In this document: positions 5,609 through 46,080 of the stretch, piece by piece
Position numbering within the stretch: position 1 is the stretch's first letter
How the letters are laid out: every line of letters starts with the position of its first letter
NCBI GenBank assembly: GCA_016206085.1
Contig: JACQSF010000002.1
Span: 1-54,262 of the forward strand
DNA length: 54,262 bases
Reading direction: 5' to 3'
Source of the DNA: Candidatus Uhrbacteria bacterium
Lineage (GTDB): Bacteria; Patescibacteriota; Patescibacteriia; UBA9934; GWF2-40-263
Notes under the pieces: model-generated
The model's database searches: none
The model's input: only the letters and a program-made list of their open reading frames with translations
Told to the model about the DNA's origin: nothing
Position numbers and translations under genes: made by a program

Positions 5609-7890
5609 TTTTTGTGTGGTTTGAATTTTCCTTTCTTGGCCTCGAGTGCGCGTTTCTTTTCCAGGATCTCGATCGCGGACTCACGGGTGACTTCTGCCGG
5701 GTTACGTTTTTTGCCAAGTGACGCGTTCGTCGTTCCGTCGGTGAGGTAAGGACCGAAACGTCCGTGCTTGAGAATAATCTCACCACCGCTTGTTGGATCG
5801 GTTCCAAACTCGGCAATGGGTGTGAGCATCTTTTTCTTGAGCTCGGCAGATTCTTTCAGGATGATGCGCGCCGTTGCTTCGTCGATCGAGAGGGGATCAA
5901 GGGGTTCCTTGATGCTCGCGCTCACTTCGCCGGCTTTGAGGTAGGGACCGAAACGTCCCACAGCCGCGACAATTTTTTCACCACCTTCTGTCACGCCCAC
6001 ATCGCGCGGAAGAGAGAGACACGCAAGCGCTTGCTCAAACGTCACAGATTCAACGTTCATGCCCTTGAGGAGTGACGCGCTTTTTGGTTTAGGCTTTCCT
6101 TCTTTCTTGTCTTCCTTGCTGTATTCACCGATCTGCACAAAGCCCCCGAAGCGGCCGGTCTTCAGAATGACAGGGAGACCTGAGTCTGGATCTGTTCCCA
6201 GCACGCGGTCTGGCATGATGTCTGCGCGGTCAAGTTCCTTTGTTTTTGTTTCAAGGTTCTTGTGAAACGGTTCGTAGAACGCTTCGAGCGTGGGCACCCA
6301 TTCAACTTTTCCTTCCGCGATTTCGTCCAGTGTGTTTTCCATCGTCGCGGTGAACTCGTAATCGACGATCTGTGGGAAGTGGCCTACCAGCACATCGTTC
6401 ACGATCAAGGCGATGTCGGTGGGAGCAAGTTTCTTGTTGTCATCACGTTCCACGTAGCCGCGATCGATGATGGTTGAGATGGTTGGCGCGTACGTGGAAG
6501 GTCGGCCAATCCCGAATTCTTCGAGTGTCTTCACGAGGGTCGCGTCTGAATAGCGGGCTGGAGGTTCAGTAAAGTGCTGTGAGGGAAGGATCGATTTTGT
6601 GACGACCGCATCGCCCTGAGCGAGATCAGGGAGGATTTTTTCTTTTGCCGACTGGTAGACCTTCATGAAACCCTGGAAGGCGACGGAGGAGCCAGAGGCG
6701 CGGAAGAGGCAGTGCTTCGCCTGGATGTCGACGGTCGTTCGGTTGAGTTGCGCAGACGGGAGCTGTGAAGCAACCGTGCGGCTCCAGATAAGGCTATAGA
6801 GTTTCCACGCGCGTGGCTCAAGCGCGGAGCGGAGCGACTCAGGAGTTGCGGTGACTTCTGTTGGACGGATGGCTTCATGCGCTTCTTGGGCGCCTTTTTT
6901 GTTGGTTTTAAAACGTCGTGCACCTTCCGCATACTTCTCACCAAACGTCGTGCGGATATAGGTCTGGGCTTCATCGAGGAATTTTTCGGCCAAGTTCATC
7001 GAGTCCGTACGCATGTAGGTGATACGACCGGTCTCGTAGAGTTCTTGAGCTAGACGCATGGTCTGCTTGGAGCTAAATCCGAGTTTCGTGTTCGCATCGA
7101 TCTGCAACGTTGAAGTCGTGAGCGGCGTGGGAGCGGCTTTCTTTATGAGCTTCTTCTCGACCGCGGTGACACTCGCCGCAGCTCCAGAAAGACTCTCGAC
7201 GATTGTCTTCGTACGTTGTTCTGTTTTGAGATCGAGTTTGTCGATTTTTTTCCCGTCGACTTCCATCAGCTTTGCCGGAAAACTGATTTCTGACTTCTCG
7301 AATTCCGCGTCGATGGTCCAGTACTCTTCAATGTTGAAGGCTCGGCGTTCGCGTTCGCGTTCGACAATAAGACGCATCGCGACAGATTGCACGCGACCAG
7401 CGGAGAGACCGTAACGGATTTTCTGCCAGAGGAATGGTGAGAGTTCGTAGCCGACAAGACGATCCAGGATACGGCGCGTCTGCTGGGCGTTCACGAGGTT
7501 TTGGTCGATGGCTCGTGGATGGGCAACGGCTTCCTCCACGGCAGCGCGGGTTATTTCGTGAAACGTGATGCGGCGAGTGTTCTCGGGTTTGAGTTTGAGC
7601 GCCTCCATGATGTGCCAGGCGATAGCCTCTCCTTCGCGGTCTTCGTCCGTCGCCAGGTAGACCATGTCGGCATGTTTGACCGCGGCTTTGAGCTCGGTCA
7701 CGGCTTTCTTGCTTTTGGGTGGAATCGTGTACGTTGGCTCAAAATGATTCTCGAGGTCTACACCGAGTTTGCTTTTTGGAAGGTCACGGATGTGACCAAA
7801 AGAGGAAAGGACTTTGTAGTCCGAACCTAAGTATTTTGAAATGGTTTTTGCTTTCGTCGGGGACTCGACGATGAGTAGATGGTGCGACAT
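5605..7890 (-). CDS. topA: DNA topoisomerase I (type IA)
   Basis: LIVESPTKAK, ATDEDREGEAI, SAGRVQS, catalytic ITYMRTDS. C-terminal GRFG/GPY repeats in place of zinc ribbons. Confidence 0.97.
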   Translation of the reverse strand: MSHHLLIVESPTKAKTISKYLGSDYKVLSSFGHIRDLPKSKLGVDLENHFEPTYTIPPKSKKAVTELKAAVKHADMVYLATDEDREGEAIAWHIMEALKLKPENTRRITFHEITRAAVEEAVAHPRAIDQNLVNAQQTRRILDRLVGYELSPFLWQKIRYGLSAGRVQSVAMRLIVERERERRAFNIEEYWTIDAEFEKSEISFPAKLMEVDGKKIDKLDLKTEQRTKTIVESLSGAAASVTAVEKKLIKKAAPTPLTTSTLQIDANTKLGFSSKQTMRLAQELYETGRITYMRTDSMNLAEKFLDEAQTYIRTTFGEKYAEGARRFKTNKKGAQEAHEAIRPTEVTATPESLRSALEPRAWKLYSLIWSRTVASQLPSAQLNRTTVDIQAKHCLFRASGSSVAFQGFMKVYQSAKEKILPDLAQGDAVVTKSILPSQHFTEPPARYSDATLVKTLEEFGIGRPSTYAPTISTIIDRGYVERDDNKKLAPTDIALIVNDVLVGHFPQIVDYEFTATMENTLDEIAEGKVEWVPTLEAFYEPFHKNLETKTKELDRADIMPDRVLGTDPDSGLPVILKTGRFGGFVQIGEYSKEDKKEGKPKPKSASLLKGMNVESVTFEQALACLSLPRDVGVTEGGEKIVAAVGRFGPYLKAGEVSASIKEPLDPLSIDEATARIILKESAELKKKMLTPIAEFGTDPTSGGEIILKHGRFGPYLTDGTTNASLGKKRNPAEVTRESAIEILEKKRALEAKKGKFKPHKK

Positions 7891-13447: not shown

Positions 13448-13476
13448 TTGAAAAGGGGATAGGAGCGTGATAACGT
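13448..13476 (+). promoter_or_regulatory. Putative sigma70 promoter driving GIY-YIG + tRNA-Val
   Basis: TTGAAA-17 nt-TAACGT with a TGn extension; only 7 nt separate the GIY-YIG stop from the tRNA. Confidence 0.55.
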
Positions 13477-13489
13477 TTCGCTCGCGGAT

Positions 13490-13738
13490 ATGTTCTTTGT
13501 CTACTTGTTACAAAGCGAGGTCGATGGAACGTACTACATCGGGAGAACCAACGATGTTTCTCGTAGACTCGACGACCATAATAGTGGTCAATCTTTTTAC
13601 ACAAAGAGAAAAAGACCCTGGAGGTTGGTCTACTACGAGGCTTACGATAATGAGGATCTCGCTAAGGAGAGGGAGAAGAAATTGAAGAAGAGAGGATCCA
13701 GTTACTACGGTCTTCTTGAAAGGTTGGGAAGAAAATAA
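13490..13738 (+). CDS. Stand-alone GIY-YIG nuclease (82 aa)
   Basis: FVYLLQS...YYIGRT...RRLDDHNSG...YTK..RPWRLVYYE...AKEREKKLK. Confidence 0.92.
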   Translation: MFFVYLLQSEVDGTYYIGRTNDVSRRLDDHNSGQSFYTKRKRPWRLVYYEAYDNEDLAKEREKKLKKRGSSYYGLLERLGRK

Positions 13739-13745
13739 AATAACA

Positions 13746-13822
13746 GGGCGTGTAGCTCAGTTGGTTAGAGCGCTGTCCTCACACGACAGAGGTCAGAGGT
13801 TCGAGCCCTCTCACGCCCACCA
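13746..13822 (+). tRNA. tRNA-Val(CAC)
   Basis: GGGCGTG acceptor, CTGTC-CT-CAC-AC-GACAG anticodon arm, AGAGG-TTCGAGC-CCTCT T arm, CACGCCCACCA. Confidence 0.96.
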
Positions 13823-13824
13823 AT

Positions 13825-13856
13825 AAAAGTATCTCAAAAATTGGGATATTTTTTTT
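13825..13856 (+). terminator. Putative terminator after tRNA-Val
   Basis: AAAAGTATCTC-loop-GGGATATTTTTTTT. Confidence 0.5.
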
Positions 13857-13877
13857 GGATAAGCTCAGTTGGTTAGA

Positions 13878-13901
13878 TCCCCCCGCTCGCGAGCGGGGGG
13901 A
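13878..13901. mobile_element. 24-bp perfect palindrome TCCCCCC-GCTCGCGAGC-GGGGGGA
   Basis: Flanked by a TAGA direct repeat (13874-13877 and 13902-13905) that occurs once at this site in the intact tRNA. Confidence 0.85.
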
Positions 13902-13931
13902 TAGAGCGCTGTCCTCACACGACAGAGGTCA

Positions 13932-13955
13932 TCCCCCCTTTCGCGAAAGGGGGGA
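13932..13955. mobile_element. 24-bp perfect palindrome TCCCCCC-TTTCGCGAAA-GGGGGGA
   Basis: Flanked by a TCA direct repeat (13929-13931 and 13956-13958) that occurs once at this site in the intact tRNA. Confidence 0.85.
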
Positions 13956-14071
13956 TCAGAGGTTCGAGCCCTCTCACGCCCACCAAACCAGACGCTTCCG
14001 GGCGCCTGTTTTGTTTGTCACCGCCGTCCCTTGCCCCATGTCCATTTTCTTGATACGCTTGGAACATCTTT

Positions 14072-14677
14072 ATGTCATTACGATTTTCCCAGTTTGAAGA
14101 GAGATTGTATGACCGGTTTGGACCGGTGGGTGGCGCGGTTGCTTCCTTTTTGCTTGAGATCATCCAGATCATCCTTATCTCAAGTGCGATCATCATTCCG
14201 ATTCGTTACTTCTTGATTCAGCCGTTTTATGTAAAAGGGGCGAGCATGGAACCCAACTTTTACGACCAGGAGTACCTTATTATCGATGAATTGACCTACC
14301 GGTTTCGTGAACCGTATCGAGGAGAGATTGTTGTATTCAAGTATCCTCGCGATCCCAGTCAGTACTTCATCAAGCGTGTGATCGGGTTGCCAGGGGAGAC
14401 GGTCGAAGTCACGGGGGGAAATGTCATCATCTATAACACCGAGCATCCAAATGGGGTCGTGGTTGAAGAAGATTACTTAGACGAATCCACGACCGGCAAA
14501 GTCCGTGTGACACTCGGAGAAGATGAGTACTATGTCTTCGGAGATAATCGTGATTCATCACTGGACTCCCGGAGCTTCGGTTCTATTACTCGTGATGATG
14601 TGATCGGACGTGTGTGGGTCCGCGGTCTCCCCCTCTCTCGTATTACAACGTTTGACCTTCCCACTTACAATCTCTAA
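14072..14677 (+). CDS. lepB: Signal peptidase I
   Basis: TM helix, VKGASMEPN (Ser), RGEIVVF, FIKRVIGLPGE (Lys), GDNRDSSLDSR. Confidence 0.95.
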   Translation: MSLRFSQFEERLYDRFGPVGGAVASFLLEIIQIILISSAIIIPIRYFLIQPFYVKGASMEPNFYDQEYLIIDELTYRFREPYRGEIVVFKYPRDPSQYFIKRVIGLPGETVEVTGGNVIIYNTEHPNGVVVEEDYLDESTTGKVRVTLGEDEYYVFGDNRDSSLDSRSFGSITRDDVIGRVWVRGLPLSRITTFDLPTYNL

Positions 14678-14685
14678 TTGATCCT

Positions 14686-16107
14686 ATGCCATTCAAGAGA
14701 AAAGCTCTAGCCAAAGAACCGGCTCCAAAAAAGGTTTTGAAAGAGGAGCCTAAAAAAGATCTCGATGAGGAGGGTGAGGGAAAATCCGGGAAGACATTTG
14801 AACTGCTTCGTGGATTTCGAGACATCTTGCCGGAGGATCAGGGCAGATGGAACCTTGTGCGTGATACGATTCGTTCAATTGCCGAATCCTACAGCTTCGA
14901 TCGTATCGATCTGCCGATTTTGGAGCGTTCGGATTTGTTTCAGCGAACCATCGGCAAAGGAACCGACATCGTCGAAAAAGAGATGTACGTCTTTACGGAT
15001 CCATCCAATCGTTCTGTGGCGTTGCGTCCGGAGGCGACCGCCAGCGCGGCTCGTGCCTATATCAGCCACGGCATGATTGAGCGGCCACAGCCGGTGAAGA
15101 TGTGGTATTTAGGTCCCATGTTTCGTCACGACCGTCCGCAGGCCGGCCGTTATCGCCAGTTTTATCAGGCGGGATTTGAGAGTTTTGGTGTGGCCGAACC
15201 GATTGTGGATGCCCAACTCATCGTGATTGGTCATCAGATTTTTAAGTCGCTTGGTTTGGACGTAAAAGTTGAGATTAACTCGATTGGCACCTCCGAGTGT
15301 CGCGCCGCGTATCTTACTGAACTTGTCGCGTACTTCCGCCAGCATCGCAATAAACTTTCCGAGGATGACAAGCGGAGACTGCAGAAAAATCCCTTGCGCA
15401 TGTTGGACAGCAAGGAAGAGGTAACCCGTGAGCTACTGCAAAGTGCTCCTCAAATTCTTGATTGGTTGGATGAGACGAGCAAGGAGCACTTCATGAAGGT
15501 GCTTGAGTTTTTGGAAGAGGTGGAGGTGTCCTACCAACTCAATCCCTACTTGGTTCGCGGGCTTGACTACTACTCACACACCGTTTTTGAGTTTACGCTT
15601 CAAGAAGACGTCGGCGACTTGTCGCAAAGTGCGTTGGGTGGCGGCGGACGATATGACGGGCTTGTGGAGATTCTTGGTGGTCGGCCGACACCGGCGTGCG
15701 GATTTGCCCTGGGAATTGAACGCATCGTTCGTGCGTTGGAAGCAAAAGGCGTCAATCCACCCGAGCGTCCACCCGCCCTGGTATTTTTTGCTCAGTTGGG
15801 TGATGCGGCTCGTCGTGTGGGACTGAAGTTGTTTGAGGAGTTTCGACAAGCGGGTGTTTCCGTTGCAGAAGCGTTTGGGAAGAATGCCCTCAAAGGCCAA
15901 CTGGAGGCCGCCAATAGGATGGGGGTAAGACTCACGCTCATTTTAGGTCAAAAGGAAGTGCTCGATGGGACGATTATTATTCGTGACATGGAGTCAGGGG
16001 CGCAGGAGATTGTCGACGTAAAAAAGGTTGTGGGACTTGTGAAAAAGAAGCTCCTCCATGAGGAGGGGGTGGCTCTCCAGAGTCAGACGCCGGTTGTGGA
16101 AGCTTAA
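14686..16107 (+). CDS. hisS: Histidyl-tRNA synthetase
   Basis: RGFRD, LRPEATA, FRHDRPQAGRYRQFYQ, LVRGLDYY, GGGGRYDGL, GFALGIER. Confidence 0.97.
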   Translation: MPFKRKALAKEPAPKKVLKEEPKKDLDEEGEGKSGKTFELLRGFRDILPEDQGRWNLVRDTIRSIAESYSFDRIDLPILERSDLFQRTIGKGTDIVEKEMYVFTDPSNRSVALRPEATASAARAYISHGMIERPQPVKMWYLGPMFRHDRPQAGRYRQFYQAGFESFGVAEPIVDAQLIVIGHQIFKSLGLDVKVEINSIGTSECRAAYLTELVAYFRQHRNKLSEDDKRRLQKNPLRMLDSKEEVTRELLQSAPQILDWLDETSKEHFMKVLEFLEEVEVSYQLNPYLVRGLDYYSHTVFEFTLQEDVGDLSQSALGGGGRYDGLVEILGGRPTPACGFALGIERIVRALEAKGVNPPERPPALVFFAQLGDAARRVGLKLFEEFRQAGVSVAEAFGKNALKGQLEAANRMGVRLTLILGQKEVLDGTIIIRDMESGAQEIVDVKKVVGLVKKKLLHEEGVALQSQTPVVEA

Positions 16108-45684: not shown

Positions 45685-45933
45685 CTACTTCTGGATCAGG
45701 TGTTTTCTCATGAAGGCAATTCCAGAAGCTGTTTTTAGATATTTTTCAAATTGTGCTGCTTGCTGTTGTGATATGAAAGCAGAGTACCAGATGACTGACC
45801 AGAGTTTGAACTTTGAAGTATGTGGTACTTGTCCAGCGTTATGTTGTTCAAGTCGGTTCCGGAGGTTTGATGTCGAACCTTTATAGATTTGATTTGGGAG
45901 GTTCTTGCTTCTCAGGATGTAGACGTAGTGCAT
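45685..45933 (-). CDS. Stand-alone GIY-YIG nuclease (82 aa)
   Basis: MHYVYILRS...IYKGSTSNLRNRLEQHNAG..PHTSK...WSVIWY.AF...AAQFEKYLKTASG. Confidence 0.9.
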   Translation of the reverse strand: MHYVYILRSKNLPNQIYKGSTSNLRNRLEQHNAGQVPHTSKFKLWSVIWYSAFISQQQAAQFEKYLKTASGIAFMRKHLIQK

Positions 45934-45973
45934 ATCGAGTTGGCCTGTCTCTATATGAAGACGAGCATGGCCT

Positions 45974-46080
45974 GCCATCCGTAGCTCCAGCACAGGACAT
46001 AGTTATACGCCCTTCTTCGCTAAAGCTACGGAGGGCATCCTTCGCCCCAGCAACAAAAAATACTGCTGGAGCGAAGGATG
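45974..46080. repeat. Cluster of CCGTAGCT/CCTTCGC palindromic repeats between the tmRNA 3' end and GIY-YIG
   Basis: GCCATCCGTAGCT...AGCTACGGAGGGC and CATCCTTCGC...GCGAAGGATG hairpins; the latter overlaps the tmRNA CCA. Confidence 0.75.

Follow-up and report, generated by a model that had tools for sequence, protein, structure and literature searches.

A 54,262-nucleotide stretch of DNA from a Candidatus Uhrbacteria bacterium (contig JACQSF010000002.1; hereafter the window) carries two perfect 24-bp palindromes, each bounded by a short direct repeat and each lodged in a loop of a 5'-truncated copy of a tRNA-Val gene. They belong to a wider family of 24–26 bp, GC-armed, TCGCGA-centred palindromes that is concentrated in one order of ultra-small bacteria. 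These palindromes are inserted DNA, usually accompanied by a TN(N)A-like duplication of 3–4 bp. They are dispersed, their palindromy is maintained, and their arms co-vary with the clade of an associated GIY-YIG nuclease. That they form a real family of mobile palindromes is very likely. The best explanation is probably a mobile hairpin element whose likely partner is a nuclease resembling SLX1 and UPF0213 proteins, in an arrangement comparable to that of the Ssn nucleases and their hairpin repeats. Whether this nuclease is the enzyme that moves the palindrome is a closer question, and we lean slightly towards doubt. It is, apparently, a very small insertion element of ultra-small bacteria that has gone undescribed.

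The host genome (G000) comprises 877 kb in 34 contigs with 51% GC, in a phylum whose genomes range from 0.4 to 2 Mb. The window holds an intact tRNA-Val(CAC) gene with an encoded CCA at 13746-13822 on the forward strand (ARAGORN; Rfam tRNA, 70.7 bits). The truncated copy lies at 13862-13985 on the same strand and corresponds to tRNA positions 9-77, through the CCA. Palindrome 1 (TCCCCCC-GC-TCGCGA-GC-GGGGGGA, TCCCCCCGCTCGCGAGCGGGGGGA; 13878-13901) sits in the D loop between TAGA repeats at 13874-13877 and 13902-13905, where the intact gene has a single TAGA. Palindrome 2 (TCCCCCC-TT-TCGCGA-AA-GGGGGGA, TCCCCCCTTTCGCGAAAGGGGGGA; 13932-13955) sits in the variable loop between TCA repeats at 13929-13931 and 13956-13958. 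The original prediction had described just such a pair with a common TCGCGA centre and with TAGA and TCA duplications, and both the palindromes and the repeats were confirmed at these positions. Its claim that the tRNA can be restored also held: once each palindrome and one copy of its repeat are deleted, the remaining 69 nt are identical to positions 9-77 of the intact gene (69/69). Both palindromes extend to 26 bp if the neighbouring A and T are included. Matches to the TCCCCCC-type pattern with a 10-base spacer and at most two mismatches number two in the window against 0.07 expected, and none of 100 shuffles reached two per window.

The truncated copy cannot be a tRNA, because its 5' acceptor strand is missing. 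Rfam returns a partial tRNA match (model positions 9-63) in which the alignment starts at position 9, with inserts of 30 nt in the D loop and 28 nt ahead of the T arm. It had been suggested that the D, anticodon and T stems could still pair, with the palindromes as extra arms. The stems are indeed intact in sequence, but the fold with two extra arms is not the one predicted. Neither the proposed decoy role nor that of a tRNA-like ncRNA found support. Palindromes 1 and 2 are 30 bp apart, and in the predicted minimum-energy fold, whether as DNA or as RNA, the arms of one pair with the arms of the other, making the copy one long hairpin that encloses the anticodon arm. The truncated copy also seeds a false permuted 'tmRNA*' call by ARAGORN (13890-14694) that spans the signal-peptidase gene.

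That the element is inserted DNA follows from the existence of matching empty sites in related genomes. One site in G002 (contig C53) reads gaACA-[24 bp]-ACAatt, and its orthologue in G000 (C19) reads gaACAatt, an exact difference of 27 bp (the 24 bp plus ACA), or nine codons. In the gene for polynucleotide phosphorylase (PNPase) the site is filled in G000 and empty in both G002 and G004; G004 lacks the 27 bp, and G002 reads TCCTCC, with a 24-bp gap. The tail of ribosomal protein S5 (rpsE) carries an insert in G001 and none in G000. At the end of a riboflavin-synthase-like gene in G000 (C26), alignment with relatives was too poor to define an empty site. A side-by-side comparison of the G002 PNPase tail (L096) with L004 shows TCCTCC to be equivalent to both repeat copies without the 24-mer; it could be an excision footprint or a plain Gly-Gly codon pair.

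The element is dispersed within and between genomes. In total, G000 has four perfect copies and one worn copy (C19:12068). Besides the two in the window, the copy at C7:1653 (TCCCCCCACTCGCGAGTGGGGGGA) has TCC on both sides and is in frame with PNPase, within its Gly/Arg-rich C-terminal tail, and the copy at C26:9612, with the centre TCACGA, has TTGA on both sides at the end of the riboflavin-synthase-like open reading frame (ORF). Three copies occur in G001 (in the N-terminal tail of rpsE, in a conserved 449-aa protein and at one further site) and three in G002; the element is also present in G054, G065 and G068, and a scan of metagenome contigs added 29 more loci. The exact 24-mer of palindrome 2 recurs in G068 and in many metagenome contigs. 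The original prediction was of a tiny mobile palindrome recorded twice, to be sought elsewhere as TCCCCCC-N10-GGGGGGA. Such copies were found in G000, in its relatives and in metagenomes, with duplications at their flanks, and the dispersed copies together with an exact empty site for a filled site support the idea. Rfam had no match at the other palindrome loci. Viral contigs contained no members of the 24-mer family and two matches to the wider family.

Of 27 independent sites, 16 have the element flanked by direct repeats of 3–4 bp; by chance about 2% would (binomial tail 1e-20). The repeats seen are TAGA, TCA, TCC, TTGA, TCAA, TGA, ACA, TAG and CTA, and every one can be read as T-initial on one strand. 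A 26-bp element (A...T) with repeats of 1–2 bp is an alternative description that fits the data equally well. Landing sites comprise a dead tRNA copy, intergenic DNA and disordered parts of proteins, where the element sits in frame. Long open frames contain 36 of 69 copies; the 24-bp element has no stop codon in any frame, and the proteins with in-frame copies include PNPase and rpsE (both in their tails), a 91-aa protein and the 449-aa protein. The hexamer TCGCGA itself occurs 403 times in the genome against 409 expected, and is thus neither avoided nor enriched, so that a link to restriction-modification is not indicated.

The wider family, described by CCCNCCN-TTCGCGAA-NGGNGGG, was found in 29 of the 161 genomes of the order, with 1–5 copies each. 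A reversed-pattern control gave zero matches, and a slightly looser pattern matched only three of about 400 other genomes sampled across the phylum. Flank repeats of at least 3 bp are present at 12 of 29 sites (binomial tail 2e-13). Two positions in each arm are free to vary, giving at least eight arm variants, and both free pairs are complementary in 46 of 51 copies, where the chance expectation is 1 in 16. In one protein gene with nine homologues, the sequence around the element diverges by 20–30% and the 24-mer is identical letter for letter. Complementary arms and an invariant 24-mer together imply either that the hairpin is under selection or that one arm is copied to the other. Some copies of this gene, which belongs to a metagenome protein family (L014, L035, L040), carry an extra insert of about 75 nt composed of other GC hairpins, and second palindromes (CCCTCCCGTCGCGACGGGAGGG) occur at other sites within it.

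The tRNA-Val locus differs among members of the genus. In G002 the tRNA-Val gene is followed by 830 bp with an unknown 231-aa ORF and then by a copy truncated at about position 10, which carries TCCCCCTGCTCGCGAAAGGGGGGA at the same D-loop spot with TAGA flanks. G004 has a truncated copy starting at GTTAGAGC. In G007 (L059 1523-1600), a 22-nt 5' copy gives way at this D-loop position to a 47-nt hairpin (CCCGCCCGACTGAACGACG...CGTTCGGGCGGG), 40 nt upstream of the intact gene. G005 has a plain tRNA-Val arrangement. The D loop of the tRNA-Val gene is therefore a recurrent breakpoint. Either palindrome 1 predates the split between G000 and G002, with gene conversion keeping each fragment identical to its own working gene, or the spot has been hit repeatedly; given the G002 copy, palindrome 1 may be old or site-specific, and not a fresh random hit.

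More generally, tRNA-Val(CAC) is an insertion hot spot in this genus (L057, from G004:C1; L058, from G002:C16), with up to about 6 kb between tRNA copies that includes unknown ORFs, a nucleotidyltransferase and an AAA ATPase. No integrase and no GIY-YIG gene was detected in the material inserted there in G002 and G004. The truncated copy was also considered as an att remnant of an integrase-borne element, a reading that gained no support.

All hairpin insertions observed in tRNA-derived DNA lie at unpaired cloverleaf positions, namely the D, anticodon, variable and T loops, positions 8/9 and the CCA tail. The earlier suggestion that looped regions are targeted gains some plausibility from this pattern; however, many of the events are homologous, and TN(N)A-like sites in ordinary coding sequence are also used. 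The pattern fits insertion into folded single-stranded DNA, and homology or selection could also shape it.

The candidate partner nuclease is encoded directly upstream. A single-domain GIY-YIG gene of 82 aa (13490-13738, forward strand; Pfam GIY-YIG, E = 9e-19) stops 8 bp before tRNA-Val and 124 bp upstream of the truncated copy. It is preceded by a conserved block (TTGAAA ... TCGCTCGCGGAT; 13448-13489, forward strand) that also stands before tRNA-Val in G002 and G004 and that was not called in a consensus promoter scan. In relatives this block continues into tRNA-Val; here it continues into the GIY-YIG start codon. The nuclease ORF is itself an insertion, because the leader of relatives runs directly into tRNA-Val: a bare ORF interrupts it between GAT and AAC, and the leaders of G002, G004 and G005 are uninterrupted, with no gene there. 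The GIY-YIG domain covers residues 1-70 of 82 and is the sole Pfam match, with no joined DNA-binding domain. The closest solved structures are the UPF0213 proteins 1zg2 and 1ywl, followed by SLX1, and the family-invariant residues are all present (Y5, Y16, G18, R26, H30, E50, R61, E62). No identical protein is on record in other assemblies. Four small GIY-YIG genes occur in G000, beside tRNA-Val, the tmRNA gene and tRNA-Ser (C19), the fourth being Ssn-like.

Homologues of the window nuclease are encoded in 146 of the 161 genomes of the order, often several per genome. Among the best 30 homologue loci, the gene is nearly always beside a tRNA gene, mostly tRNA-Trp, and usually directly upstream of it, and 17 of these 30 loci have TCGCGA-centred palindromes of 24–26 bp within about 450 bp, many of them in tRNA fragments. 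Typically, a palindrome splits a 5' or 3' tRNA fragment that adjoins the nuclease gene and an intact tRNA gene; the split points fall in the anticodon loop (with TCCA duplicated), the D loop and the T loop. The closest homologue (62% identity), in G054 from another family of the order, comes with a tRNA-Trp 5' fragment and then TCCCCCCTCTCGCGAGA, fused to a truncated nuclease ORF. A maximum-likelihood tree built from 35 nuclease sequences assigns the C-run palindromes (AYCCC...TTCGCGAA) to one clade and the GCCACGTCG palindromes to another, with a single change required on the tree. Support for the two arm-type clades is 90/95 and 90/90, and none of 500 label shuffles was equally clustered. 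Within the C-run clade, the subclade of the window protein has AT-CCC arms and its sister subclade AC-CCC arms.

The GIY-YIG nucleases of the Ssn type have hairpin repeats on the flanks of their genes, to which they bind, cutting the adjacent single-stranded DNA (PMC11893778). Here, the palindrome would form a hairpin or cruciform recognised by the SLX1/UPF0213-like nuclease, much as Ssn proteins recognise their hairpin motifs. The nuclease might then cut at the base of the hairpin and at TN(N)A sites exposed in single-stranded form, with the result that the element is moved or copied. Among such targets would be the loops that a tRNA gene forms when its single-stranded DNA folds, and repair of staggered cuts would generate the short duplications. 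Short staggered ends are left by GIY-YIG enzymes such as I-TevI, Eco29kI and Hpy188I. The truncated tRNA-Val copy would serve as a harmless landing pad, and may itself be a by-product of breaks or recombination at the tRNA-Val hot spot. Hits in a working tRNA would be lethal, and none was seen. SegB, a GIY-YIG nuclease associated with tRNA genes, causes segmental duplication via breaks and microhomology (PMC13096335), and this precedent thereby offers a possible route to partial tRNA copies.

Several observations weigh against a nuclease-driven hairpin element. The genome of G002 is rated 100% complete and has three palindromes, yet it contains no nuclease homologue at E <= 1e-5; its tRNA-Val fragment carries a palindrome without a nuclease, and the G000 orthologue is without one of its three palindromes. 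Most dispersed copies are far from the nuclease: of 29 loci sampled from the wider family, 23 have no GIY-YIG gene nearby. The nuclease ORF in the window was inserted upstream of the tRNA gene in an event separate from the formation of the fragment, and arm type might follow nuclease clade simply because the two are physically linked in an inherited cassette. The length of the flank repeats ranges from 2 to 4 bp, and about 40% of sites have none, which is untidy for one enzymatic mechanism. The TCCTCC in the PNPase tail of G002 means that the insert there may be 24 bp with no duplication; either that is the case, or G002 retains a footprint. The published degenerate SRM motif, with its oriented, GTC-containing 5' tag, is matched neither by the palindromes nor by other hairpins of the genome: a scan found no match on either strand of the fragment, and one in the whole genome against 5–12 in shuffles. 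We know of no biochemical activity for this nuclease clade.

Some of these points would sit more easily with mobilisation by a different enzyme, either a Y1 transposase of the IS200/RAYT type or, as with miniature inverted-repeat elements, a DDE transposase supplied in trans. The proximity to GIY-YIG genes would then arise only because two sorts of selfish DNA collect where they are tolerated, in dead tRNA copies. We consider this unlikely. Duplications of 3–4 bp with the form TNA/TNNA are typical of IS5/Harbinger-type DDE elements, and those found here mostly have that form, but DDE_Tnp_1, the one DDE family searched, was unmatched in G000 in a search with positive controls. Inserts with similar inverted ends but greater length, such as the approximately 100 nt between ATCCAGCCC and GGCGGGAT at L069 and a similar one at L072, could be taken as relatives of a larger element; G000 itself has no longer element with these arms as its ends. 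As for Y1 enzymes, G000 has two Y1_Tnp genes of the IS200/RAYT type (C27:47140-47463 and C28:36658-36975), flanked by GGGGTCAGGTCTCCGG-type and GGGGTCAGG-type repeats and not by these palindromes. Insertion of the REP/IS200 type also proceeds without target duplication, and its GTAG/CGTC tag is missing here (PMC3733652). A different enzyme would readily account for the G002 palindromes that lack a GIY-YIG homologue in their genome, but would leave unexplained why arm type follows the GIY-YIG clade.

The palindromes might instead have no mobility of their own and be selected hairpins or protein-binding sites, such as cis-sites of a nuclease cassette or RNA modules, copied occasionally by recombination or by microhomology-mediated repair, which also leaves short repeats. 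A 24-mer unchanged at one site in nine diverged gene copies is what such selection would produce, as are compensatory arm changes, the low copy number of 1 to 5 per genome and the occupation of the same sites across genera (G002:C45 and G065:C16; the tRNA-Val D loop in G000 and G002). We nevertheless find this account improbable, since it must accommodate exact filled and empty alleles between species, hits in genes and lineages that are unrelated, where duplications are much more frequent than chance would give, copies that sit in frame in disordered protein tails with no obvious function, and two copies 30 bp apart within a dead gene fragment. An artefact of assembly or amplification, or local replication slippage with no family behind it, is very improbable indeed. 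The window palindromes are known from assembled contigs alone, and palindromes are known to break short-read assemblies: two independent Logan assemblies with the same downstream gene both start exactly at the right edge of palindrome 2, which fits a break in the assembly graph caused by that palindrome without proving it. However, independent genomes and metagenomes contain the same element, where it has flank repeats and keeps the reading frame, and a homologous D-loop insertion is present in a second species.

A stronger form of the mobile-hairpin reading, which we regard as rather doubtful, is that the element represents a distinct class of prokaryotic transposable element, a 24-bp palindrome for whose movement a free-standing GIY-YIG nuclease of 82 aa would suffice, without any DDE, HUH, serine or tyrosine enzyme. 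The nuclease would recognise the hairpin once extruded and insert it into single-stranded loops of folded DNA, for instance those of tRNA genes, and nuclease and palindrome would co-evolve as a matched pair. To our knowledge, no smaller mobile DNA with target duplications would then be on record.

Among the closest known counterparts is the Ssn/SRM system, in particular SsnA with its NTS/dRS3 repeats (Chenal et al. 2025, PMC11893778). Both have a tiny single-domain GIY-YIG gene, and in both, hairpin repeats (20–50 nt in Ssn systems) adjoin the nuclease gene and are also dispersed, with repeat sequences that vary by nuclease lineage (PMC11893778). Like the present element, dRS3 combines fixed arms with a variable core (PMC11893778). 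Ssn repeats flank the nuclease gene, and both window palindromes lie 140–220 bp downstream of theirs. In contrast, the nuclease here is closest to UPF0213/SLX1 proteins and its genes are lodged at tRNA and tmRNA genes; the palindromes are perfect, have no oriented upstream tag and come with target duplications. Copies number 1 to 5 per genome and not hundreds, and about half are inside genes, compared with 2% for NTS (PMC11893778).

REP/REPIN sequences mobilised by RAYT (Di Nocera et al. 2013, PMC3733652) share with the element a length of 20–40 bp, a palindromic structure and the presence of intragenic copies, and their units, when paired, can form one larger hairpin, just as is predicted for palindromes 1 and 2. 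Unlike them, the element has no GTAG/CGTC tag, ends in TCCCCCC and GGGGGGA with variable flanks, and has target duplications (16/27 sites), and the Y1 genes of its host are flanked by other repeats. As a miniature inverted-repeat element, the palindrome would amount to two abutting 12-bp inverted repeats with duplications of 2, 3 or 4 bp, mostly TNA/TNNA; no half-site pair at insertion-sequence distance, as expected of a parent insertion sequence, was found in G000. Rickettsia palindromic elements (Ogata et al. 2000) are reportedly about 100–150 bp long, with no known nuclease partner. They resemble the present element in their in-frame insertion within genes that encode proteins, but the latter measures 24 bp and its loci have no Rfam match. 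The GC clusters of yeast mitochondria are organellar GC-rich palindromes of 30–50 bp that spread within a genome and are flanked by short duplications such as TAG; they seem alike in spread and in short duplications and unrelated in sequence. The element departs from each of Ssn/SRM, REP/RAYT and Rickettsia palindromic elements in tested defining features.

SegB of T-even phages is likewise a GIY-YIG gene beside tRNA genes, with partial or segmental tRNA duplications nearby (PMC13096335), and free-standing GIY-YIG homing endonucleases are similarly present or absent at one fixed spot among relatives. SegB-type enzymes carry a DNA-binding domain in addition, and no family of palindromic repeats goes with them, unlike the 82-aa, one-domain protein described here. 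Full-text literature searches yielded no description of such palindromes in these bacteria, nor of GIY-YIG genes lodged at tRNA genes with them.

If the pairing of nuclease and palindrome is real, a large set of tiny GIY-YIG proteins, so far unexplained, in ultra-small bacteria would gain a function, and the Ssn principle, a minimal nuclease with its own DNA hairpin, would extend to another clade. The pairing would also contribute what the Ssn work is without, namely sites that are cleanly filled or empty and carry target duplications, showing that hairpins of this sort do move. There are also practical consequences, as 24-bp inserts break assemblies, add nine residues to essential proteins and give rise to spurious tmRNA and tRNA calls. 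For work with single-stranded DNA, a nuclease with specificity for one defined 24-nt hairpin would, in addition, be an interesting tool.

Other features of the window and its host lie outside this argument. Between the intact tRNA-Val and its truncated copy is a spacer of 39 nt (13823-13861, forward strand) that, read directly, contains a small hairpin and then eight Ts in a row and appears terminator-like; a consensus promoter and terminator scan made no call for this hairpin. A second 82-aa GIY-YIG gene (45685-45933, reverse strand; region 45685-46080) lies directly downstream of the tmRNA 3' end (46079), from which stacked hairpins unrelated to the C-run palindromes separate it. The Ssn-like GIY-YIG gene of G000 (96 aa; C7:6426-6700, region 6355-6755) has hairpins on both sides, GTCATTGCGAGG...GAAGCAATC and also GTCATTGCGAGG...CGACGAAGCAATC, and the 11-mer CTCGCAATGAC occurs 37 times in G000. 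By our analysis, this hairpin family appears to resemble the CGTC-tagged REP family (PMC3733652), and the published SRM motif is unmatched.

Other GIY-YIG clades of the order have hairpins of their own. Palindromes of the GCCACGTCGGTCGCGACCGACGTGGC type start in the CCA end of a tRNA, are followed by a CTGCCA repeat and are tied to a second GIY-YIG clade (L068, L071, L072, L074, L083, L084, L087, L095). Members of a third clade lie in a hairpin, CCCCGCACCTTT...AAAGGTGCGGGG, directly before GGAGGAAAGTCCGAAC (L073, L076, L080, L081, L082); the latter looks like the 5' end of RNase P RNA, and Rfam at its gathering threshold made no call at these loci. At L069 and L072, tRNA-Trp fragments upstream of GIY-YIG genes carry inserts of about 90–100 nt with ends (ATCCAGCCC...GGCGGGAT and ACCCAGCCGGTGGT...ACCACCAGCTGGGT) that resemble the arms of the short palindromes, and these may be longer versions of the element with an internal segment. 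Finally, G000 contains a separate family of perfect palindromes of 26–36 bp, centred on ATGTCCGATCGGACAT and containing GATC sites, at a frequency far above shuffles (C8:50883, C30:2062, C30:2285, C23:29867 and C8:18131).

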